Below, in pieces: positions 4,653 through 40,821 of a DNA stretch of 44,613 nucleotides (the stretch's first letter is position 1; every line of letters begins with the position of its first letter). A model generated the notes under the pieces. That model was not told the origin of the DNA. It saw only the letters and a list, made by a program, of their open reading frames with translations, and did no database searches. The translations under genes and the position numbers were made by a program. The stretch is taken from the sequence record SRR31156797_7337. One strand, given 5' to 3'.

Positions 4653-7600
4653 ATGTATATGATACGTTTAAAATTAATTCCCTTAATATTATTTGTAGGA
4701 CTGATTTCCAGTTCTTTTGCGCAAGAAACCCGATTATTGCGATTCCCTGATTTTCATGATAATAAAGTTGTGTTTACTTATGCTGGTGATTTATATTTAG
4801 CTGACAGAGCTGGCGGAACTGCCAGAAAAATAACTTCTCATGCTGGTTTTGAGATGTTTGCTAAGTTTTCACCTGATGGTAGTAAAATAGCCTTTACAGC
4901 TCAATATGATGGAAATACTGAAGTTTATGTGATGCCTGCTGAAGGTGGAACACCCAAAAGGTTAACCTATACAGCTACTCTGGGTCGCGATGATGTAAGT
5001 GATCGTATGGGACCTAATAATATGGTTACTTCCTGGACCCCCGATGGAAAATATATAGTATACCGTTCACGTGGTATAACATTTAATTCATTTGTTGGTC
5101 ATTTATTTAAAGTATCGGTTGATGGTGGTTTATCTGAAAGATTACCATTGGCAACAGGCGGTTTCAATACATATAGTGAAGATGGTTCAAAATTGGCTTT
5201 TAGCCGAGTTATGCGAGAATTCCGCACATGGAAATATTATGAAGGTGGTATGGCTGATGAAGTATGGTTATTTGATTTTAAAACCAAAGAGACTAAAAAG
5301 CTAACGGACAATGTAGCTCAGGATATTTTCCCGATGTATCATAATGGAGATGTTTATTTCGCTTCTGATCGTGATAGAACCATGAATTTGTTTGTTTACA
5401 GAGGAGAAAGTGGTAAAGTTGAGAAAGTAACAAACTTTGATGAGTATGATGTGAAATTTCCATCAAGAGGAACGGATGGTATCATTTTCGAAAATGCAGG
5501 ATATCTGTATATTCAAAAATATGAAGGAGGAGAGCCTGAAAAACTATCTATAAAAGTTATTAATGATCAACCTGTTGGAAGAGACGCGTGGGTTGATGCT
5601 TCAAAATATATTAATAATGCAACAATATCACCAAAAGGTAAAAGAGTAGCGTTTGCAGCACGCGGAGATATCTGGAGTGTGCCTGCTGAAAATGGTATTA
5701 CCTACAATTTAACTCAAACGCCTGGAGCTCATGATCGTAATGCTGATTGGTCGCCGGATGGTAAGTATTTGGCGTTTATTTCAGATATGGATGGTGAGGA
5801 TCAATTATATTTACTTGAAAACAAAGAAGATGCTGAACCATTCAAAATAACGGATAATAAAACATATATTTTTGGATATGAGTGGTCGCCTGATAGTAAG
5901 ATGATTGTATGGAGTGATCAAAACTATAACTTGAACTATTTGGATGTAGAAAAGAAAAAAACGATTCAAATTGCTCATGGTGATCATGGAAAGTTTTATT
6001 CGTACAGCTGGAGTCCAGATTCAAAGTGGTTAGCATATTCAGATGCCCGTGAAAATGAAATGTCAGTAATCATGTTGTATAACCTTGAAAGCCAGAAGAA
6101 ATATGAAGTAACAGAAAGTTGGTACGATGCCAGTTCACCAGTATTTTCTCCAGACGGAAAATATCTGTATTTTACTTCTGAAAGGGATTTTAATCCAATT
6201 TATAATGAGGTTGAGTGGAATTATGCATTTAAATATATGTCAAGTGTGTATATGCTTCCTTTGGCAAAAGATACGAAATCGCCACTTGAACCGACTAATG
6301 ATATGGTTGAAGTAGATAATGAGACTAAAGAAGAAGGCAAAAAAGAGGAAAGTAAGGATAATAATATTGTAATTGATACTGAGAACTTATCATCGCGAGT
6401 GATTGGACTTCCTTTAGAATCAGGATATTACTGGAATTTGATACCAGTTGAAGGTAAAATTTATTATACCACCATGAAGCAAGGCGATAGTAAGCCTACC
6501 ACAAAAGTTTTTGATTTAGAAAAGAAAAAAGAATCTGAAATTGCATCAGGTATTGGTATGTCATTATCTACAAATGGAAAGAAAGTATTAGTAAGTCAAG
6601 GAGGAAGCTATTTTGTTGAGAACTTACCTTCAGGTAAAATGAAACCTTCAAATAAGGTGAATACTGGAGATATGAAGCTTATGGTTGATAAAAAAGCGGA
6701 ATGGAAACAAATATATACTGAAAGTTGGCGACAAATGCGTGAATTCTTTTATGCAAATAATATGCATGGGGTTGATTGGAAAGCTATGCATGAAAAATAT
6801 GCCAAATTGCTTCCATATGTAAATCACAGAAATGATTTAAATTACTTAATTGGAGAACTCATTGGCGAATTGAATATTGGTCATGCATATGTCAACGGCG
6901 GAGACAGACCTGATGTTGAACGTATTAAGACAGGATTATTGGGAGCACAGCTGTCAGCAGATAAATCTGGTTATTTCAAAGTAGATAAGATTCTAAAAGG
7001 AGAAAATTGGCGTAAAGATGCCAGATCTCCATTGACCGAGCCGGGTGCTGATATAAATATAGGAGATTATATTTTGGCTGTTGATGGTAATTCAACTAAA
7101 GATGTCAATGACGTTTACCAATTACTTGTGGGTAAGGCTAATAAGGTAGTTGAATTACTAGTAAATGATAAGCCTTCAGAAAAAGAAGCGAAAAAGATTT
7201 TGGTAAAAACAACCGATGATGAATCAGAGCTTTATTATTATAACTGGGTGCAGGAAAATATTGATAAAGTAGCTGAAGCAACCAATGGAAGAGTTGGATA
7301 TATTCATATTCCTGACATGGGGCCAAAAGGTTTGACTGAATTCGTAAAATACTTCTACCCACAGTTGACTAAGGAAGCTTTAATAATTGACGATCGTGGA
7401 AATGGTGGAGGAAATGTTTCGCCTATGATTATGGAGCGATTGCGCAGAGAGGTCGCATTTTATAGTATGCGAAGGAATAAAAATTCAGTAGAGCCCAGCC
7501 CAACAAAACAGCTAGCAGGGCCTAAAGTGCTGTTGGTAAATGGTTATTCAGCTTCAGATGGTGATTTGTTCCCATATCGTTTTAAAACGCATAAAGCCGG

Positions 7601-7898
7601 TAAAATAATAGGAATGCGCTCCTGGGGTGGTGTTGTTGGTATAACAGGCTCATTGCCATTTATTGATGGTGGGCAGTTGAGAAAACCGGAATTTGCGCCA
7701 TTTGCAAAAGATGGTAGTAAGTTTATAATAGAAGGTTATGGTGTTGATCCGGATATTGCAATAGACAACGATCCTTATAAGGAGTATATGGGAGAAGATA
7801 CACAATTAAACAAAGCTATTGAAGTAATACTTGAAGAGCTTAAAACTAAAGGTGTTAAAACGCCTGCTATTCCTCCATTTCCCGATAAATCGAAATAA
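4653..7898 (+). CDS. Tricorn protease homolog (S41 family, beta-propellers + PDZ)
   Basis: Signal peptide, PD40-like WSPDG repeats, GYIHIPDM, IIDDRGNGGG, catalytic SASDGD, GMRSWGGVVG. Confidence 0.93.
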   Translation: MYMIRLKLIPLILFVGLISSSFAQETRLLRFPDFHDNKVVFTYAGDLYLADRAGGTARKITSHAGFEMFAKFSPDGSKIAFTAQYDGNTEVYVMPAEGGTPKRLTYTATLGRDDVSDRMGPNNMVTSWTPDGKYIVYRSRGITFNSFVGHLFKVSVDGGLSERLPLATGGFNTYSEDGSKLAFSRVMREFRTWKYYEGGMADEVWLFDFKTKETKKLTDNVAQDIFPMYHNGDVYFASDRDRTMNLFVYRGESGKVEKVTNFDEYDVKFPSRGTDGIIFENAGYLYIQKYEGGEPEKLSIKVINDQPVGRDAWVDASKYINNATISPKGKRVAFAARGDIWSVPAENGITYNLTQTPGAHDRNADWSPDGKYLAFISDMDGEDQLYLLENKEDAEPFKITDNKTYIFGYEWSPDSKMIVWSDQNYNLNYLDVEKKKTIQIAHGDHGKFYSYSWSPDSKWLAYSDARENEMSVIMLYNLESQKKYEVTESWYDASSPVFSPDGKYLYFTSERDFNPIYNEVEWNYAFKYMSSVYMLPLAKDTKSPLEPTNDMVEVDNETKEEGKKEESKDNNIVIDTENLSSRVIGLPLESGYYWNLIPVEGKIYYTTMKQGDSKPTTKVFDLEKKKESEIASGIGMSLSTNGKKVLVSQGGSYFVENLPSGKMKPSNKVNTGDMKLMVDKKAEWKQIYTESWRQMREFFYANNMHGVDWKAMHEKYAKLLPYVNHRNDLNYLIGELIGELNIGHAYVNGGDRPDVERIKTGLLGAQLSADKSGYFKVDKILKGENWRKDARSPLTEPGADINIGDYILAVDGNSTKDVNDVYQLLVGKANKVVELLVNDKPSEKEAKKILVKTTDDESELYYYNWVQENIDKVAEATNGRVGYIHIPDMGPKGLTEFVKYFYPQLTKEALIIDDRGNGGGNVSPMIMERLRREVAFYSMRRNKNSVEPSPTKQLAGPKVLLVNGYSASDGDLFPYRFKTHKAGKIIGMRSWGGVVGITGSLPFIDGGQLRKPEFAPFAKDGSKFIIEGYGVDPDIAIDNDPYKEYMGEDTQLNKAIEVILEELKTKGVKTPAIPPFPDKSK

Positions 7899-7915
7899 TG
7901 ATTAGATTCAATACG

Positions 7916-7944
7916 AAGGCGTCAACAAGTTTGACGCCTTTTTT
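7916..7944 (+). terminator. Intrinsic terminator
   Basis: AAGGCGTCAA-caagt-TTGACGCCTT followed by a T run, just after the tricorn stop. Confidence 0.85.
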
Positions 7945-7989
7945 AATGAAAAAAAGGTTAAATTGTATGCTTAATTTAAAATTATTGCC

Positions 7990-8448
7990 ATGAAGAGAAT
8001 ACTATTTTTATTGTTGGTTCCGACAATATTATTTGCTTGCGAAGCATTGACAGGTAAAGAAATTGGACGTTTACAAATAAATCAGGTTTCAACAGAAGGA
8101 AATGAAATTGTAAAAGAAATAACCTTAGAGCTAAAACAGGGAGAAGAGATTGCAGTATGGTCTGAGATGGATTTTAAATATGAAGGTGATTTAGGTATTG
8201 TTTTTCGTATTCAGGTGCTAAGAGACGGCGAAGAAATTTCTGTATTGGATATAGACCCAAGAGAGAAGAACATTACAATGAATGAAATTAAAACAGATGT
8301 AATGGATAAAATTGATTGGAGTTATTCTGGTAAGAATACTACTATAAGTATTGATGAAACATCCTCTTATACTTTTAGGGCCGGCCTTTTGGCTTCAGAC
8401 AATCCTACATTAGAAGTTAAAAAAGCGGAGCTTGTATTTAAGAAGTAA
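7990..8448 (+). CDS. Hypothetical lipoprotein
   Basis: 152-aa ORF with lipoprotein signal MKRILFLLLVPTILFAC. Confidence 0.8.
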   Translation: MKRILFLLLVPTILFACEALTGKEIGRLQINQVSTEGNEIVKEITLELKQGEEIAVWSEMDFKYEGDLGIVFRIQVLRDGEEISVLDIDPREKNITMNEIKTDVMDKIDWSYSGKNTTISIDETSSYTFRAGLLASDNPTLEVKKAELVFKK

Positions 8449-8467
8449 AAGTTGTTTTTATAATATA

Positions 8468-8492
8468 GAAAAGCACCTTTTCGGTGCTTTTT
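8468..8492. terminator. Bidirectional intrinsic terminator
   Basis: AAAAGCACC-ttttc-GGTGCTTTTTT between convergent genes. Confidence 0.8.
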
Positions 8493-11400
8493 TCATATTC
8501 TTACTCCTAGAACTGTGATATCATCAATCTGATCATATTTACCTTGCCAGTTTGCTAATGTTTCACATAAAATATCCTTTTGTTGACTGAATGGTTTCGT
8601 GTGGATTTCCATTAACAGCTTTTTGAATTTCTCAGATGAAAATTTTGTTTGCGTATCACTACTAAACTGATCCTTGTAACCATCTGTAAATAAATATATT
8701 GAATCATTAGTTTTAAGTTCCATTTTTTGTAATTCAAAAGGTATATTTTTATAATGAATTCCAACAGGTATTGGCGTTCCTTCAAGGATGATAAGCTGTT
8801 TATTGCGAATAATATAAAGCGGAGACTCAGCACCAGCAAAGTAAAGCGTGTTATTTTCTAAATCGATGTCTACAAATGCCATTTCAATACCATCCTTTAC
8901 TTCACTTTGCAAATATTGTTGTATTTCATTTTCACCGGATTCAGAAATTGATGGGTTTGTGAGTGATTGCTTTACTTGTATATTCAGTTCATCAAGTACC
9001 ATATTGGGGCTTTCGATTTCTGTTCTTCTTACAATTTCGTTCAGAAATGAAATACCCATAATGCTCATGAAAGCTCCAGGTACACCATGTCCTGTACAAT
9101 CTGCTACTGTATATAATAAATGATTTTTTATCTTCTTTAACCAGTAAAAGTCACCACTAACAATATCTTTAGGTTTAAAAATGATAAACGAATCCTTAAA
9201 GTAAAGCTTGAATAGGTTTTTATCGGGTAGAAGTGCACCTTGTATATGTTTGGCATATTCAATGCTATCAACCATTTTTTGCTGCTGAAGGCTAATTTCA
9301 TCACGTTGAGCTGATATTTCTTCTTTTTGCATTTCAAGTTGACTATTCTTTCGTTGAATTTCATGAGTTCTTTTGTTGACCTCATTTTCCAACTTTATTT
9401 TTTCTTTCTCAACTTTCTTTATGCTTAGGTATCTTATAGCCATCAGGATTGCAGTAATTATTGCCAGGTAAATAAAATATGCCCAAATGGTTCTGTACCA
9501 GGGTGGTTTTATTGAGAACTGATATTGTTGTTCATCTATTAGTTTTTCAGATAAATAAGCTCTTACTTTGAAGGTATAATCGCCTTCTGGTAAATAGTTA
9601 TACTCTTTCTCCGTTTTATTTGTAAATGAGCTCCAATTATTATCGAAACCATCGATTTTAGATCTGTATTGAACACTACTGTTTTTGTTGAAATTTATTA
9701 AAGTATACTTGAATGTCAGTGCGTTATTGGAGTATTCAATAGCTTTTACAGATGCTGATTCCGGATTGTTTGCAATATTAAGGGAATCGCCCGTTTTGTT
9801 GAGAATTATTGAACGAATCAATAATTGATTTTTGCTTTTTCGTAAGCTCTTTTGGGAAGCATTATATACTACTAGTCTATCACTGGTGCCAATTAAAACC
9901 TGTGTAGAATCTATGGGGTAAAATGCCAAATTATCTTTAATGGCTAAATTGTCAAAACTGAAAGGATACATATTAGAAATAGTGCCATCATTATTCATTT
10001 TTGCAAGTATTGGCTGCTTATTGTTTTTACCAATAATCCACCAATTTTCTAAAGTGTCTTTTTCAACTTTAAAAATATGTAAACTGGCATGGTCTTTTTG
10101 ATTTATATAACGCTTAAAGATATCTTTCTCTCTATCAATTTCATAAGTGCCAGAATCTGTGCCAATTAATAGTTTACCATTAAATTCAAAAAGGGACTTT
10201 TTTAACTTTGGTGACAACGATTCGCATTCATTAATGCATTTTTCACTTATAATTGATCGAAAATCCTTTGAAAAATTATACTTAATTATAGTATTGTTAT
10301 GATTTAACCCCCATAATATATGGTCAATAAGTATAGCGTTACTTAAAATTGGTACTTCATCATGATAAATGGTTTTAACAAGTTTATTCTCATGGAATTT
10401 TAAGGTATATAATCCACCATGTTCACCTATTCCAACAAATGTTTCTGGATTTTCAGTTGGTATAAACTTATTAATATTGGGACTTTGCGGAATTTTTTCG
10501 GCATTATAACCTTTAATAACATGCATTCCAATATTACTGCTTGAAGTAAAAAGTCTTTTTTGAATAAGGGCAAAATCCCATAATTTACGCCCTGAATTTC
10601 CTTCAATAAGTTTAAAATCTGGTTGCTTTGTAAATGGTTTCCATGTAGATTTGTATAGTCCTCTGGCTGTTCCTGTAAAAAGTTCGCCATATAATAATTT
10701 CATTGCGTAAATAGCTGAATTATTTAGACCTGAAGATTTATTAAAGTATGAAAATGGTGAATTGAAATGTATTTGAGAAATTCCAAATTCAAGGCCACTC
10801 CATATGTTTCCATCGTGATCGATAAATATTGAGCAGTGATCCTGATTTATCATGCCACTTTTCTCATTCATGTGCAGAGTTTTGTCTCCATTTTGATTTA
10901 GCACAATCACACCACTTTCAACTGTACCTAATATTAGTTGATCATTTTTTGATGTGCTTGCATAAACTTGAGATTGCTTAATAAGTTTATTATAAGGGGT
11001 TTCCCATTCAGCAAAGCCAGAAGATGTCTTTTTATAAATACCGTTTGTTCTGGTGATGAATAACAAATCTTTTCCAATTTTATGAATGTTTCGAAGGCTC
11101 AATTCTGAGAATATTTCACCACCAGGAATGACAGATATTCTCTTACCAGTGTAAATGCCAAGGCCGTCTCTGGTCTGAATATAGATTGTATCATTTATTT
11201 TTTGAAATAAACCTATCCAGCTAGAAGCCTTTTGTATACTTATGGTTTGTCCGTTGTATTTTAAAATATGACCATTTTCATCACTAAACCAAACTTCATT
11301 TTCGTGAAAGACAATTCTTCTAATGTATCTTATAGTGTATGATGTATCTTTTATTAGGTTTTTTAGGGATTTAAATAATACTGTACCGTTTTCTTTTTGT

Positions 11401-34688: not shown

Positions 34689-34708
34689 AATACACTGATA
34701 ATAAATGG

Positions 34709-34738
34709 AAGAGGCCTTGTTTTTCAAGGCCTTTTTTT
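34709..34738 (+). terminator. Intrinsic terminator
   Basis: AGGCCTTG-ttttt-CAAGGCCT plus T run. Confidence 0.85.
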
Positions 34739-34805
34739 ATGTATAAAATTATTATGGAAGGCTTAATTATACTGAAAAGCTTTGTTTTATATTTTAGCTG
34801 GCTAT

Positions 34806-35294
34806 TTAACGTATTGACTTTATAATGAAAACTGATCCAATACATAAACTCAGAAACTCCATAATTCCAACTATAAAGTATCCAACCGAACCGGTATGAA
34901 ATGCTATACCTTGAATAGAGCCAATAATAACCAATGGAATTAACCATTTCAACTGCTTTCTCTTAACGATGTCTATGATGATTCCAATATATATGGCTAT
35001 TGATGCAAAATAGTTATGAATAATAAGATATTCGGCGAAATAGGTGCTAAATGTCGCAAGGGTAATAAAGCCTATACCTACAAACCATTTGTTATAAAGA
35101 AGCCAACAACCTGTTATCAGTAAAAAAAAAGTATAGAAATAAACTCTGTTTTTGTCCATTCCCATAACTACAGAATAGGTAGGTTTACTTTGCATGAGTA
35201 AATCAACAAGTCCTGTGATGGTAAATCCAAACAATAATATAGCTATCGCAATTTTATTTATTGAATAATTTTTGAAAAATTCGTTGTTTCTCAT
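34806..35294 (-). CDS. Hypothetical membrane protein
   Basis: About six hydrophobic segments; start probably ATG 35294. Confidence 0.7.
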   Translation of the reverse strand: MRNNEFFKNYSINKIAIAILLFGFTITGLVDLLMQSKPTYSVVMGMDKNRVYFYTFFLLITGCWLLYNKWFVGIGFITLATFSTYFAEYLIIHNYFASIAIYIGIIIDIVKRKQLKWLIPLVIIGSIQGIAFHTGSVGYFIVGIMEFLSLCIGSVFIIKSIR

Positions 35295-35666
35295 AGAAAA
35301 TGTCAATTAAAACTCATTTAATGTCATTAGTTGTAAGTGTAACTATTTTATAGACAATCACTTATTTTTATGCTTCTTCTTTTATCTCAACGTCTCATAC
35401 TATGAAAGTATAACGTGATTATTTATTAAAAAAATCTGTTTTATTTTTAAAATGAATTAAAAATTAGAAACCATCAAAACTAAGAAAAATATCACATGAT
35501 AAACGTTTTTAGACAAGAAACATAAATTGCTAATAATGTTTAAATTCGTTCCTACATATCAATTATCTCAAGATATTTTATAACTTTAATGATAGGAAAT
35601 GGAAAGGATTAGAATATTCTGCATTTCATACATTTTTCTTTTATGTCTCTTTCAAATCGAATAAAT

Positions 35667-38378
35667 ATGAAAATATATTTTGAAATTCAATACCATACAA
35701 AGCCTGGACAAAAGGTGGTGGTTTGCGGTTCTACATCAGTTTTGGGAAATTGGAGTTTATCTAATGCAATTAATATGCAATATGAACATGATGGCAAATG
35801 GTTGGCAGAAATAGATGCAGATTCTAAAATTGATAAATTAGAGTACAAGTATTGTTTGATTGATGAGAGTGGCAGAGAACATTGGGAGTGGGGAAAAAAC
35901 CGGGTTCTTTCTCTAAAGGAAATTAAAACAGAAAATGTTTACTTAATCGAAAGTTGGCGTTCACCTTCAAACGAAGAAAAGGTTTTTTATAGTTCTGCAT
36001 TTGAGAAAAATCTAATGAGTCCTTCGCAACAGCTAAAGGCAAAGAAAACCACTAGCAAGAAAAGACTCAGATTTCAAATTCAGGTACCCAGAATCGGCGT
36101 AGACCATCAGCTTTGTATAATCGGAAGTATACCTCAGTTAGGCACATGGGATACTAAAAATCCATTACTTCTAAATTGCGGTGATAACTTTCCGCTTTGG
36201 TCGGTAGAAATTAATGCTTCCACCATTAAAGCGCCTATTTATTACAAATATGGTATTTACGACATCAAGAAAAAAGAATTGGTTACCATAGAAGAAGGAG
36301 CGGACCGTTACTTTGAAATTCCAAAACTAAAAGAAGATGAGTTTCTTTTGACAAAATCAGATGAAAGCTTTCGTTATCCTGTTGGTAATTGGAAAGCAGC
36401 AGGTGTGGCGGTACCTGTATTCTCACTTAGGACCGATAAGGGGTTTGGAGTTGGGGAATTCCCTGATTTAATCGATTTTATTGATTGGTCTAAAAGTGTG
36501 GGCATGAAAATGTTGCAAATTCTTCCCATCAATGAAACGGTCGCATCGCACAACTGGCTTGATTCTTACCCGTATAAATCCATTTCTGTTCTGGCCTTGC
36601 ATCCGCTGTATTTAAATATCCAGAAAATGGGGCTTTTAAAGGATAAAAAACAAATGAAGTTTTTTGAGGAAAAGCAAAAAGAGTATAACGAAAAAAATCA
36701 TGTGCATTACCCTGAAGTTCATCAACTTAAGTCGAAATACTACAAGCTGCTTTTTGACCAGGATAAGGAAAAAGTTTTCAAACAAAAAGACTATATCGCG
36801 TTTTATGAAGCCAATGAATATTGGTTGAAACCATATGCTGCTTTTGCTTATTTGAGAGATAAATATAAAACAGCCGATTTTAGACAATGGGAAAAGTTCA
36901 GTAAGTATGATCCTAAAATGATTGATTCTCTGATAAAATCCCGTGCTAAAAATGACATTGTTATTCATTATTTCATACAGTATCATCTTGATAAACAATT
37001 AAAAGAAGTAAGTCAGTATGCACGTGAACAAGGTATTGTGCTAAAAGGAGATATTCCAATTGGAATTAGTCCCAATAGTGTGGAAGCCTGGACCGAACCG
37101 CATTTATTCAACTTAAATGCACAGGCAGGAGCCCCTCCTGATGATTTTGCAGTGAAAGGACAAAACTGGGGATTTCCAACCTATAATTGGGATAAAATGG
37201 CCGAAGAAGGCTATGCATGGTGGAAAGGTCGTTTAACCAAAATGGCCGAGTATTTCGATGCCTACCGCATTGATCATATTTTAGGTTTCTTTAGAATCTG
37301 GCAAATTCCACTTGATGCTGTGGAAGCCTTATTGGGTTATTTCAATCCGGCCATTTCACTTACAGCAGATGAAATTGAAGGTTATGGTATTCAATTCGAT
37401 TACGAAAGAATGGTTAAACCCCATATTCCATATCATTTGGTTGAAAATAAATTTGGAAAATGGACGCAGGAGGTTATTGATAATTATTTGGATGACAATG
37501 GCTGGGGCCATTTTAAAATGAAGGAAGATTTCGATACGCAGCTTAAAGTAAACCAGTACTTTTTGAATGGAATAGAAGAGGAGGAGCTTACCGATGAAAA
37601 TAGATGGATAAGAGATGGCTTATTCGATTTAATTGCCAATGTAATATTTGTTCAGGCAGGTGAAAACGAATGGCACCCAAGAATATCAATGCACCAAACC
37701 AATTCCTATAATGAATTTGATGAGCACACCAAAAATCAATTGAATGAAATATATGTCGATTATTTCTACAAACGTCAGGATGATTATTGGCGTCAGAAAG
37801 GAATGGAAAAACTGCCAGCAATTGTGGATGCCAGCGATATGTTAATATGTGGAGAAGATTTAGGAATGGTTCCCGATTGCGTACCGCCAGTAATGGACGC
37901 GCTAAATATCCTAAGTTTGGAAATTCAAAGAATGTCTAAAAATCCGAAAAAGAAATATGCACATCCGGCAGATGCACCATATCTTTCTGTCTGTACGACT
38001 TCTACCCACGATATGCCAACTATCAGAGGATGGTGGGAAGAGGACAGAGAAGCCATTCAAGAGTTTTACAATGTTGAATTAGGAAATCATGGTGCTGCAC
38101 CGTTCTTTGCAGAACCAGACGTCTGTAAGCAAATGATTGTTCAGCATTTACATTCACCTGCCATGTGGACTACTTTCCCCATACAGGATCTCATTTCAAT
38201 GGATGGTAATCTGCGATGGGAGAATACGCATGGAGAACAAATAAACCAACCTAGTAATGTACGTCATAAATGGCGTTTCAGAATGCATCAAAGCATCGAT
38301 GATTTGAAAAATGCTAAAGCCTTTAACGAGCTACTTCGAACTTTGATCAAAGAAGCTGGCAGGGATTCGGATTATTAA
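35667..38378 (+). CDS. malQ: 4-alpha-glucanotransferase (GH77) with two N-terminal CBM20 domains
   Basis: Two G-S-x3-LG-x-W CBM20 starts; LKGDIPIG, GAPPDDF, YRIDHILGFFRIW, CGEDLG, TSTHD. Start is 35667 or 35643. Confidence 0.93.
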   Translation: MKIYFEIQYHTKPGQKVVVCGSTSVLGNWSLSNAINMQYEHDGKWLAEIDADSKIDKLEYKYCLIDESGREHWEWGKNRVLSLKEIKTENVYLIESWRSPSNEEKVFYSSAFEKNLMSPSQQLKAKKTTSKKRLRFQIQVPRIGVDHQLCIIGSIPQLGTWDTKNPLLLNCGDNFPLWSVEINASTIKAPIYYKYGIYDIKKKELVTIEEGADRYFEIPKLKEDEFLLTKSDESFRYPVGNWKAAGVAVPVFSLRTDKGFGVGEFPDLIDFIDWSKSVGMKMLQILPINETVASHNWLDSYPYKSISVLALHPLYLNIQKMGLLKDKKQMKFFEEKQKEYNEKNHVHYPEVHQLKSKYYKLLFDQDKEKVFKQKDYIAFYEANEYWLKPYAAFAYLRDKYKTADFRQWEKFSKYDPKMIDSLIKSRAKNDIVIHYFIQYHLDKQLKEVSQYAREQGIVLKGDIPIGISPNSVEAWTEPHLFNLNAQAGAPPDDFAVKGQNWGFPTYNWDKMAEEGYAWWKGRLTKMAEYFDAYRIDHILGFFRIWQIPLDAVEALLGYFNPAISLTADEIEGYGIQFDYERMVKPHIPYHLVENKFGKWTQEVIDNYLDDNGWGHFKMKEDFDTQLKVNQYFLNGIEEEELTDENRWIRDGLFDLIANVIFVQAGENEWHPRISMHQTNSYNEFDEHTKNQLNEIYVDYFYKRQDDYWRQKGMEKLPAIVDASDMLICGEDLGMVPDCVPPVMDALNILSLEIQRMSKNPKKKYAHPADAPYLSVCTTSTHDMPTIRGWWEEDREAIQEFYNVELGNHGAAPFFAEPDVCKQMIVQHLHSPAMWTTFPIQDLISMDGNLRWENTHGEQINQPSNVRHKWRFRMHQSIDDLKNAKAFNELLRTLIKEAGRDSDY

Positions 38379-38642
38379 GGTGTGGTAAATCTAGTTTAGG
38401 AGTCTAATGGTATTTATCTGATATTAAGCTGGTTATGCCATGGGATGTTGATGAATTGGAAAAGTGTCTTATTACTAAAAAAGGTTTGCTTTTTAAGGCC
38501 TTTCAATCGAACCGATTTTAGTTGGAGAGATCATGAATCACTGTTAGGTGATGAGTAATCTTCACTGGGCCAAATTTACGATTTACATTTCAAAAACAAT
38601 TCGTTAACCTTTAGCTCTCAGGTATTTGTTTTAGTTTTCTTT

Positions 38643-39329
38643 TTAGATATGAAATCTAAAACCCAACAAAAAATCCCATCCACTACCATTAAGGTTGTCC
38701 ATAATATCAATCAACTCTTGATTTAAACTTCCTATATTGATATTATGACCATCTGAAGTCAATTCTTTTAATCTATAATTATGGTAGAAGAATGATGAAG
38801 AAATGGTGAACGAAAACCATTTCTTCAAATAAACTTCATACCCGAAAAATGCGGATGGACCAACCGAGCTTTTATAAATCAATATATTATGCGCTGCACC
38901 TTCTATCTGAGATGCATCAAGATCCACTTCATTTTTTAAAGAGAATCTTAACCCTCCTCCAAGATTAATATGACTCTTTTTATTGAAACTAAATTTATAG
39001 GTTACAATCGGATTTAAAACGGTTTTAGAAAATTCACCAGAAGCATTATTCAATTCTGGAACCAATCTTGATTTTACGCTAGATAAGCTAAAGAAAACTT
39101 CAATATTATTATCAAATCGGTATCCTAACCTACCTCCCCAAATTCTACCACCTCCAATAGATAAATCAACATCATCCCCGTCTTCAGTAACAATTCCTGT
39201 TTCAAAACTTTTTCCTAAACCTCCACCTCCATATATTTCTATTGAAAATGGATTTGAAATTACTTGAGATTTTAGTTCAATTCCTGAACAAAAAAGTATT
39301 ATTAATATAGCAAGTGTTATAGTTCTCAT
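38643..39329 (-). CDS. Outer-membrane beta-barrel-like exported protein (putative cassette 2 gene)
   Basis: Signal peptide, Gly/aromatic amphipathic strands, terminal strand GWDFLLGFRFHI; ATG lies 38 bp after the attC-like GTT crossover. Confidence 0.75.
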   Translation of the reverse strand: MRTITLAILIILFCSGIELKSQVISNPFSIEIYGGGGLGKSFETGIVTEDGDDVDLSIGGGRIWGGRLGYRFDNNIEVFFSLSSVKSRLVPELNNASGEFSKTVLNPIVTYKFSFNKKSHINLGGGLRFSLKNEVDLDASQIEGAAHNILIYKSSVGPSAFFGYEVYLKKWFSFTISSSFFYHNYRLKELTSDGHNINIGSLNQELIDIMDNLNGSGWDFLLGFRFHI

Positions 39330-39359
39330 TTTGATGTTTAATTTTTTCTATCAATTAAT

Positions 39360-39494
39360 ATATCTAACGTTGAGTGTATGCGTAGTGGTAGACTTCGGAG
39401 CTTCTCGCTATCAAACAGTGATGGTGTTGATGCGAGCAAAAAGCCTGATAGTTAATACTTTATTCGCCATTACGTATGATACATTGTTAGCGTT
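39360..39494 (-). mobile_element. attC-like recombination site (long imperfect inverted repeat)
   Basis: Coding strand AACGCTAAC-AATGTATCATACGTAATGG...CCACTACGCATACACTCAAC-GTTAGATAT. Nested stems: 39364-68/39486-90, 39374-88/39467-82 with one bulged G, and 39404-17/39425-36. Confidence 0.75.
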
Positions 39495-39518
39495 TCGTGT
39501 TTTTATTTATTAATCTTT

Positions 39519-40613
39519 CTAGCTTTCCTTTTCAAAAAAACCAACTAAGATATCAGACAATACCTGGGGACTTTCAATAGCAGGGCAATGTCCAACATTG
39601 GGAATAATGTGTAGTTCTTTTTTATCCTTGGGTAAATTGGTTAATGCGTTATAAATTAATTCAGCGTGTCCTGTACCAACGACGTAATCTTGTTCGCCCT
39701 GAATAACAATTGTAGGTATCCTTATCTGCTTCAATTCAGATTCAATATTGATGTTGTTGTATGAAGGAGTGTTTCGAAAAGCGGTATTTACGATTTCTGC
39801 CTTTTCTCCAACCTCCGCATATTCCTCTTCTGAATATTTCATCAATCTCATTAAGGCGGAATCCTGTACTACATCTTTAAATGAAATAATCTTAGATGTA
39901 TCTGCGAAATATGCGTTAAATCCAAGCATAGCTGGAACCTCATGTTTCATCCAGTTTACATCTGTATGAAATTGCTCAAAATTACTGTTTTTAATCCGTT
40001 CCAATTCTGCTATAATATGCTCCAACTCAACTTTTTTTTCTTCAGAAATGTCAGTTTGAAGTATTTCAATTGCTCTATTAGTTTCAAAATCGATGAGTGA
40101 ATGGTTTTGATAATTGCTGTTAACTTTTCCATCAATGCAAGCATAAGAAAGTACTTTAGTTTGGTCTGTTAATAGATATAAAAAACCATACATTCCACCC
40201 CATGAAGTTCCCATGATATGGACTTTTTCTTTATCGTATTTTTGTCGCAAGGAATCAATTACAATATCCAAATCTTCAACATATTGCTCTACTGTAAGCA
40301 AGTCTTTATTTCTGCATTCCATAGATTTTCCGCATCCACGTTGATCCAAATATACAACCAGAAATTTATTTTCCAATCCTGGTCCCATTAATTTAATATC
40401 AATACCGGAATATCCACCCGGGCCGCCATGCAAATTAACAATCAAGGGGTTTTCAGGGTTTCCGCGCACTCTCACATAAAGTTCAGATTCTGGTACTTTT
40501 ACCATGATTTCATGGTCAATTTTTTTAATTTTCTCGCTACATGAAAAGGTTGATATTATCAAACCAGTAACACATATTAAGTAAAGAATTTTGAAGACTT
40601 TCAATTTATCCAT
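39519..40613 (-). CDS. Alpha/beta hydrolase lipoprotein, proline iminopeptidase-like (putative cassette 1 gene)
   Basis: LHGGPGG, DQRGCGKS, GTSWGG nucleophile, QGEQD, GHCP; lipobox STFSC; start probably ATG 40613. Confidence 0.88.
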   Translation of the reverse strand: MDKLKVFKILYLICVTGLIISTFSCSEKIKKIDHEIMVKVPESELYVRVRGNPENPLIVNLHGGPGGYSGIDIKLMGPGLENKFLVVYLDQRGCGKSMECRNKDLLTVEQYVEDLDIVIDSLRQKYDKEKVHIMGTSWGGMYGFLYLLTDQTKVLSYACIDGKVNSNYQNHSLIDFETNRAIEILQTDISEEKKVELEHIIAELERIKNSNFEQFHTDVNWMKHEVPAMLGFNAYFADTSKIISFKDVVQDSALMRLMKYSEEEYAEVGEKAEIVNTAFRNTPSYNNINIESELKQIRIPTIVIQGEQDYVVGTGHAELIYNALTNLPKDKKELHIIPNVGHCPAIESPQVLSDILVGFFEKES

Positions 40614-40684
40614 ATTAAATTTTGTTACAACTTTTTGTAAGTTAATTACCTTGAGTATCAATTATGAGAGAAGTTTTCAACATG

Positions 40685-40693
40685 AACGCTAAC
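40685..40693 (-). mobile_element. Putative cassette insertion point (G|TTAGCGTT core; attI-like or secondary site)
   Basis: Exact 9-bp reverse complement of the R''-like box at 39486-39494. Confidence 0.6.
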
Positions 40694-40762
40694 TATTATC
40701 GAAACGAGCATCATGTTCTTCTTGTTGCTTTTAATTTTTGTGTTTTGTTTTCTATTGCACAC

Positions 40763-40787
40763 CAAATTTAAAAATTATTACATCAAA
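40763..40787 (-). promoter_or_regulatory. Promoter upstream of the putative cassette array
   Basis: TAAATTTG (40763-40770) with TTTG (40784-40787); the 13-nt spacer is shorter than typical. Confidence 0.5.
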
Positions 40788-40791
40788 AAAG

Positions 40792-40818
40792 AAAAGGCCT
40801 TGATTTTTACAAGGCCTT
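40792..40818 (-). terminator. Intrinsic terminator of the secA-dapA transcript
   Basis: AAGGCCTTG-attttta-CAAGGCCTT, followed on the minus strand by TTCTTTTTT. Confidence 0.8.
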
Positions 40819-40821
40819 AAT

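Follow-up and report, generated by a model that had tools for sequence, protein, structure and literature searches.

Integron attC sites, which carry the core consensus RYYYAAC / GTTRRRY, are the closest described counterparts of the element analysed here. The sites of Xer recombinases are short and double-stranded, with two arms flanking a 6-8-bp spacer, and insertion sequences of the IS1111-attC group target integron attC sites. According to passages of PMC2727003, an attC site comprises an unpaired spacer, a variable terminal structure, and two to three extrahelical bases on the R''-L'' arm; an extrahelical G in L'' and a T located 6-8 nt further are particularly conserved, and most sites have a G after AAC. 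The integron integrase IntI is defined by an additional domain around patch III, the I2 helix (excerpt of bioRxiv 10.1101/2022.02.06.479319), and this helix is credited with the shift to single-strand recombination in the abstract of PMC7790495. In Bacteroidetes, an extract of PMC9024848 mentions as previously known just In0 integrons, plus one complete integron in Salinibacter ruber, and an extract of bioRxiv 10.1101/2024.07.02.601686 places the Bacteroidota among the clades earlier found integron-free. IntegronFinder relies on a model derived from 96 known attC sites (PMC4889954, in extract). Searches of open-access papers and bioRxiv for an earlier description of a system such as the one reported below returned canonical integrons only, and an integron-like system of the Bacteroidota is apparently undescribed.

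The window, i.e., the whole 44,613-nucleotide stretch of DNA analysed here, harbors an intergenic hairpin that a sequence-only reading had described as a lineage-specific variant of attC. With a probability of about 0.8, this hairpin is the recombination site that bounds a mobile alpha/beta-hydrolase cassette on its 3' side, and belongs to a Bacteroidota family that plays the role of attC.

The likeness to sedentary chromosomal integrons (the Vibrio cholerae array, with its VCR sites and VchIntIA) starts with an imperfect hairpin located directly after a promoter-less ORF. The AAC...GTT cores, the G after AAC, the unpaired spacer, the variable tip and, in some sites, the bulged R''-L'' G are shared with attC. 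Long co-oriented arrays, cassettes that start with the complement of their own inverse core, and a simple docking site beside a tyrosine recombinase gene are shared with chromosomal integrons, and the cassettes likewise include toxin-antitoxin and small accessory genes. In contrast, the recombinase lacks the IntI-specific insertion and possesses an extra N-terminal region of 105-230 residues, and its gene is co-oriented with the cassettes in the three genomes G119, G039, and G130. The extrahelical G is present in some sites only, a conserved T counterpart is not seen, the conserved strand-specific feature consists of two G:T wobbles, and the boxes depart from RYYYAAC/GTTRRRY beyond YAAC/GTTR. 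Among Xer systems (archaeal XerA, bacterial XerC/XerD, pdif modules), XerA is most similar to the recombinase found at the head of the arrays; unlike Xer sites, however, the sites here are hairpins of 115-199 nt with strand-specific features, assembled in cassette arrays. The window itself resembles a CALIN in that site and cassette are chromosomal with no recombinase gene nearby, although with one site only it would not score as such, and its site type falls outside the basis of the IntegronFinder model.

Anatomy and strand bias of the window hairpin

The hairpin is present as a single copy within the window, where it occupies most of the 189-bp gap separating two minus-strand genes. It is composed of the following parts:

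39362..39368, + strand ("bottom", folding strand): 5' box ATCTAAC, of which AAC is the invariant core
39369..39373, + strand: G39369, directly 3' of AAC, then the unpaired 5' spacer TTGA
39374..39391, + strand: 5' arm of the long stem, GTGTATGCGTAGTGGTAG, carrying the TATG....GT motif and the G of both family-wide G:T wobbles
39392..39466, + strand: variable terminal structure, with inner helices including CTCGC/GCGAG and ATCAA/TTGAT
39467..39482, + strand: 3' arm of the long stem, CCATTACGTAT-G-ATAC, with an extrahelical G at 39478
39483..39494, + strand: 3' spacer ATT and 3' box GTTAGCGTT, which reads AACGCTAAC on the sense strand of the gene, just past the hydrolase stop

On the + strand, CTAAC at 39364-39368 pairs with GTTAG at 39486-39490, and GTGT-ATGCGTAGTGG (39374-39388) lies opposite CCATTACGTAT-G-ATAC (39467-39482), forming three G:T pairs and leaving G39478 unpaired. 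Every base and position on which the sequence-only reading had relied was found in place. The unpaired spacers measure 4-5 nt on the 5' side (G+TTGA) versus 3 nt on the 3' side (ATT). ATCTAAC fits the RYYYAAC/GTTRRRY consensus, whereas GTTAGCG departs from it.

The strand-biased folding that had been proposed is borne out with both DNA and RNA energies. Folded as DNA, the + strand reaches -19.2 kcal/mol (z -2.76, 3 of 200 shuffles as good) against -12.8 kcal/mol for the - strand (z -0.88, 33 of 200 shuffles as good). Folded as RNA, the values are -44.8 kcal/mol for the + strand (z -3.12), which none of 200 shuffles equalled, and -27.7 kcal/mol for the - strand (z -1.70). That the window fold goes beyond chance follows from its homologues, which retain it with compensatory changes (see below). 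The minimum-energy DNA fold given by ViennaRNA displays a 3-nt ATG bulge instead of the single G. A comparison with the 4227 covariance models of Rfam yielded no match at gathering score in the whole window and none at the element at E up to 1 (2 kb searched); tRNA and tmRNA, searched alongside, were not found either.

A hairpin family in the Bacteroidota

BLAST of the element against the syntenic loci of relatives and against four related genomes returned chance matches only; sequence search alone was therefore too weak, and a covariance model was needed. A 71%-identical copy of the hairpin follows a different gene in metagenome locus L035 and exhibits compensatory changes, e.g., C:G to A:T. 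RNAalifold, applied to five copies aligned with MAFFT, identified compensatory changes in 14 of 29 pairs, together with two invariant G:T pairs. The covariance model, R1, was built from the window hairpin and four relatives, and comprises 18 pairs from the boxes and the outer stem. It has matches in metagenome loci and in four related MAGs, in at least 97 of 151 sampled genomes of the same order (E <= 1e-3), and in at least 54 of 151 sampled genomes across the phylum (E <= 1e-5). Hundreds of copies of the hairpin family were found in this way; 22 candidates per genome were scored in both large scans and 150 in other genome scans, and copy numbers are thus lower bounds.

Read along the folding strand, the consensus of 60 aligned copies consists of YAAC-G, a spacer of 4-7 nt, a stem with TATG....GT, a tip that varies, AT....TAT(G)A, a second spacer of 3-4 nt, and T-GTTR. 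Among the modelled cells, 96.8% pair, as compared with 30-46% in slid controls, a count inflated by the fitting of the alignment to R1. Both sides change in 13 of the 18 pairs, and none of 500 shuffles matched the observed pairing or covariation. The alignment check suggested by the sequence-only reading, covariation across homologous copies, thus gave compensatory changes, and the AAC/GTT ends that it expected among homologues are retained: the AAC and GTT cores are present in 59/60 copies, their flanks being free except for a Y before AAC and an R after GTT. The G after AAC is found in all 60 copies, opposite an invariant T. Elements are 115-199 nt long (median 134) with tips of variable sequence, and the spacers of the relatives are asymmetric as well, with 4-7 nt on the 5' side versus 3-4 nt on the 3' side.

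G:T pairs are retained at three positions, in 51/60, 59/60, and 60/60 copies, respectively; the family-wide wobbles of the long-stem TATG....GT motif are G:T in 51/60 and 59/60. An extra base may occur on the 3' arm between the fourth and fifth stem pairs, where a G is observed in 24/60 copies, no base in the other 36, and never a base other than G. The single extrahelical G39478 that had been read from the window is thereby favoured over the ATG bulge of the ViennaRNA fold, and its position and identity are fixed in the family; its presence, however, is not, as 24 copies only carry it. Within the modelled part of the stem (outer 13 bp, 60 copies), neither a conserved extrahelical T nor any further single-base insertion that recurs was observed. 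The conserved asymmetry of the family consists of the two G:T wobbles, the bulged G being optional. In 50/60 copies, the bottom strand exceeds its complement in stability, with a mean of -21.2 versus -18.3 kcal/mol (Wilcoxon p = 1.6e-8).

Cassette arrays, recombinases, and docking sites

An ORF of the opposite strand stops near the 3' box in 15 of 18 matches, the box lying at -13 to +30 nt relative to this stop. The ORFs upstream of the hairpins are diverse and include MazF- and HigB-type toxins, HTH proteins, and hydrolases. The complete genome G119 (4.08 Mb) harbors at least 49 matches, all on one strand, between 1,866,776 and 2,052,262 (about 190 kb), with spacings from 575 nt up, while its 120-kb flanks contain one weak match. 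In this array, the heptanucleotide that follows GTT in one copy is complementary, at 6 or more of its 7 positions, to the one that precedes AAC in the next copy; this holds for 21 of 23 adjacent pairs spaced by less than 1.8 kb, a count lowered by one mislocated AAC (1939616 row). The same comparison with the copy's own box succeeds in 1/23 cases, and in 3.2% of random non-adjacent pairs. By eye, the rule also holds for 3/3 pairs in G039 and 3/3 in G130. Judged from these sequences, the pattern is the classical signature of integron cassettes, with a crossover that would lie in the core and cassettes that start with the complement of their own inverse core.

The head of the G119 array encodes, on the minus strand (L070:2367-3512), a tyrosine recombinase of 381 aa. 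Among NCBIfam models, this protein matches XerA/integron integrase NF040815 best, with 230.9 bits for a cut-off of 220, and its closest relatives of solved structure are archaeal XerA 4a8e and 5hxy; IntI4 (2a3v) aligns in two stretches. Past the recombinase stop, at 75 nt, lies ...CAC|GTTACCACTC, followed by a 664-aa ORF and then by a hairpin whose 3' box is GTTACCACTC. G039 and G130 display the layout of G119, with a recombinase gene, a hairpin-less docking site with a matching box, and cassettes on the same strand. In the three genomes, the docking site is located 75-200 nt after the recombinase stop, and its box complements the 3' box of the first cassette. Recombinase gene, docking site, and cassette array are thus all present in G119, G039, and G130, whereas the window holds neither recombinase nor array. 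Recombinase homologues (40-52% identity) lie within 3 kb of the matches listed in G039, G130, and G018, in the other orientation in the latter; one is 11 kb off in G033 and one is 28 kb off, on the wrong side, in G030. The link between recombinase and hairpin is therefore uneven in these five further genomes. A 43%-identical homologue is encoded by G001, a close relative of the organism of the window.

The docking sites (L070:2290-2340, L078:6400-6440, L079:2390-2430) share, on the folding strand, AAC followed by (n)TGTnTATA, a sequence that resembles one arm of the hairpin stem. A homologue of the G119 recombinase is also encoded at positions 7426-8568 of NZ_CP111070.1, a 15-kb plasmid of Chondrinema litorale, with 41% identity over 97% coverage, N-terminal extension included.

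The recombinases of G119, G001, and G002 were aligned with IntI1 from plasmid CP090265.1. All six catalytic residues R-K-H-R-H-Y are invariant with those of IntI1 (R146, K171, H277, R280, H303, Y312). The IntI-specific insertion, 42 residues forming blocks of 31 + 11 in IntI1, is absent from the three proteins, and the Bacteroidales recombinases possess 105-230 extra N-terminal residues. No protein of G001-G004 or G119 reached the cut-off of the integron integrase model TIGR02249 (265 bits), the best ones obtaining 197-207 bits from two separate stretches, with about positions 182-236 left unmatched.

Several insertions were observed within the hairpins. In L026, the hydrolase cassette is flanked by two hairpins, each interrupted by an insertion sequence at the same point. 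The two copies (L026:1191-2880 and L026:4260-5935) are 79% identical, encode a DUF772/DDE_Tnp_1_6 transposase, and are bounded by inverted repeats GTCAG...GTCTAAAAA; in both hairpins, they are inserted between the spacer C and the GTTAGC of the distal box, which suggests that this insertion sequence targets these hairpin sites. GTCAGAC of L026, considered at one stage as a deviant distal box, was rejected since it is the inverted repeat of the insertion sequence inserted exactly at the box. In G119 (C1, 1.86-1.99 Mb; L061-L067, e.g., L062:260-2640), a unit of about 2.4 kb combines a tyrosine recombinase of 256-300 aa with an ORF of 376 aa. Its left end occurs ten times in the examined region, each time immediately after the GTT of a hairpin 3' box, and the interrupted box resumes beyond the right end of the unit. 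Both types of insertion sequence sit at one fixed position inside the boxes of these hairpins, which is reminiscent of the IS1111-attC group, although the transposase families differ from it (DUF772/DDE_Tnp_1_6 for one type, and for the other the unit that pairs a small tyrosine recombinase with an ORF of 376 aa). Rve-type transposase genes adjoin elements in L015 and L047. In G004, a gene for a 477-aa reverse transcriptase (RVT_1; L048:10070-11500) lies directly upstream of a hairpin (L048:9920-10053).

Four other explanations of the hairpin may be weighed against these data. The hairpin might encode, on the + strand, a small structured RNA or an antisense RNA, in which the G:T positions would be the G:U pairs of a functional RNA. 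The strong RNA fold of the + strand, the conserved G:U positions and covariation, and a T-rich run 3' of the hairpin on the + strand would all suit such an RNA. It is nevertheless very improbable: it does not account for a 3' box that complements the 5' box of the next copy and not its own, for matching boxes at both ends of the same gene, or for at least 49 co-oriented copies beside a recombinase. Moreover, no Rfam family was recognized even at the permissive threshold given above, the 3' box of L035 overlaps the stop codon of the upstream ORF, and inspection by eye for a Bacteroidetes-type -7/-33 pair revealed no consistent promoter for the + strand.

A REP, a MITE, or an IS-end repeat, spreading by transposition and having no part in the movement of the adjacent gene, would likewise be multi-copy and dispersed across many genomes, and copies are indeed often observed at contig ends and often adjoined by transposase genes. 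The chances of this explanation are very slim, however. The copies have no flanking target duplications and are tied to the 3' ends of genes in one orientation (15/18); their boxes vary from copy to copy yet match the neighbouring copy, while a transposing unit would carry its own ends; and the nearby transposases belong to separate insertion sequences with their own inverted repeats, inserted into the boxes. The outcomes that the sequence-only reading had named as contrary to it, a MITE with target duplications or a free-standing RNA, are not what is observed, the elements acting as cassette boundaries.

A canonical integron attC, on which an IntI-type integrase from another part of the genome would act, is nearer in anatomy. 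The distal box GTTAGAT of the window fits GTTRRRY. The cores, the G after AAC, the spacer, the bulged G in R''-L'', the variable tip, the position after an ORF, and the boundary rule match the description of attC in passages of PMC2727003. Nonetheless, this assignment is highly unlikely: the best TIGR02249 scores remain below cut-off in G001-G004 and G119, the array-head recombinases lack the 42-residue IntI insertion, no conserved extrahelical T is seen, and the G is present in just 40% of sites. IntegronFinder surveys are also near-empty for Bacteroidetes in the extract of PMC9024848. As two defining features fail, one being the conservation of extrahelical bases and the other an IntI that possesses the additional domain, the element is not established as a canonical attC. 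The array-head recombinase being Xer-like and devoid of the IntI-specific domain, a parallel system is favoured over a divergent canonical attC; the "lineage-specific variant" of the sequence-only reading is upheld to that extent, without membership in the canonical IntI/attC system. Finally, a transcription terminator or mRNA-stabilising 3' hairpin of the hydrolase gene, although the hairpin starts 24 nt past the hydrolase stop and its relatives follow other genes, is extremely improbable, as the mRNA-sense strand folds worse (the less negative RNA z-score above, and the less stable strand in 50/60 copies), converts both conserved G:T pairs into A:C mismatches, and has no T-run after the hairpin, whereas neighbouring genes possess short GC-rich hairpins followed by a T-run.

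For the preferred reading, a recombination site at the end of a mobile cassette, the anatomy suggests the following mechanism. In the window, the strand antisense to the cassette gene, i.e., the + strand, would fold on itself, and an Xer-like tyrosine recombinase would bind at the base of the long stem and at the paired YAAC/GTTR boxes. Strands would be exchanged inside AAC/GTT, so that the cassette would leave as a circle and re-enter at the docking site beside the recombinase gene, or at another hairpin. The choice of the strand may stem from features present on one strand only, i.e., the two conserved G:T wobbles, the asymmetric spacer, and the bulged G in 40% of sites.

The odds are about even for a wider proposal, in which the Bacteroidota own a phylum-wide integron analogue, folded hairpins being exchanged by an Xer-like recombinase that never gained the I2 helix, with the strand set by two G:T wobbles and an optional bulged G; the window site would be an intact member whose hydrolase cassette has moved between unrelated contexts. 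If so, more than a third of the sampled Bacteroidota species would carry cassette sites uncounted by standard integron surveys, and this phylum, which matters in gut, marine, and soil habitats, would harbor a large hidden pool of mobile accessory genes. Such a system would constitute a second set of structure-specific recombination sites and a natural test of whether single-strand hairpin recombination requires the I2 helix. It would also explain the odd intergenic hairpin of the window, and would mark the hydrolase gene as horizontally mobile.

The hydrolase cassette and its surroundings in the window

The features of the window that surround the hairpin are the following:

34689..40821, no strand assigned: accessory island of 6.1 kb holding the cassette; close relatives lack the island, and their ahpC and beta-propeller genes abut
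38643..39329, - strand: downstream neighbour, a 228-aa signal-peptide protein, starting 32 nt past the hairpin
39369..40692, - strand: putative mobile unit of about 1.32 kb, as delimited by the boundaries, comprising TTAGCG..., the gene, and the hairpin up to the base before the distal box
39519..40661, - strand: cassette gene, an alpha/beta hydrolase (Pfam Abhydrolase_1, 2e-23) with a signal- or lipoprotein-like N-terminus
40685..40693, - strand: GTTAGCGTT, the 5' boundary of the cassette, exactly complementary to the 3' box AACGCTAAC that the same cassette carries

Translation of the hydrolase probably starts at the ATG located at about 40613. Homologues of this protein, with 63-93% identity, were retrieved at 25 metagenome loci. 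In 10 of these, as in the window, the motif ACGAAACGCTAAC comes after the stop of the gene; beyond it, the sequence differs between loci while the fold is alike. At the other end of the gene, the boundary GTTAGCGTTCATG recurs in front of the L026, L030, and L031 hydrolase genes, L029 having a variant that differs by one base, and the DNA located 5' of this boundary is unrelated from locus to locus (window, L026, L029, L030, and L031). In contrast to the exact complementarity of the cassette's own 3' box, just five bases of the distal box ATCTAAC of the hairpin pair with the 5' boundary. These boundaries suggest that the hydrolase cassette behaves as one mobile unit. The crossover would be placed inside the AAC of the window 5' box and, following the cassette rule, the bases located 5' of AAC in ATCTAAC would belong to the neighbouring unit and not to the hydrolase cassette.

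The island contains a 166-aa ORF, a 4-alpha-glucanotransferase gene, the 228-aa gene, the hairpin, and the hydrolase. The related loci L001 and L002 share the order SecA - DUF6913 - DapA - beta-propeller gene, directly followed by ahpC-fur-relA, and the DapA of the window is 92% identical to that of a Salinivirgaceae MAG. The hydrolase and the 228-aa protein have no close homologue in four related genomes, and the latter has no Pfam match. A scan of the window with the covariance model identified no family hairpin after the 228-aa gene or at the island edges; the sole weak match, at 34776-34855, is non-significant (E 0.61), and the window offers no partner for GTTAGAT. The DNA upstream of the cassette 5' boundary forms no hairpin. 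The window copy is hence not the product of a simple insertion into an array. The window contains no integrase or recombinase gene, no array, and no second site; with neither array nor recombinase, the cassette is a lone, stranded one, and its site, as far as can be judged from the sequence, is intact in structure but stranded.

The two edges of the island (about 34700-34730 and 40790-40820) carry two copies of the same terminator-like hairpin, AAGGCCTTG..CAAGGCCT. In L001, one copy of this hairpin is found between the convergent ahpC and beta-propeller genes.

The closest hydrolase homologues (91% identity) are found in L016, L017, L018, and L039, where the 3' motif (L016:3390-3402, L017:4020-4032, L018:1627-1639, L039:192-204) ends at ...ACGAAACGCTAA. 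Unrelated GC-rich DNA without a hairpin follows, as if a break or an exchange had occurred within the proximal box. In L017 (2047-4005), the hydrolase homologue is embedded in a 653-aa open frame, with an N-terminus about 270 residues longer than that of the window protein.
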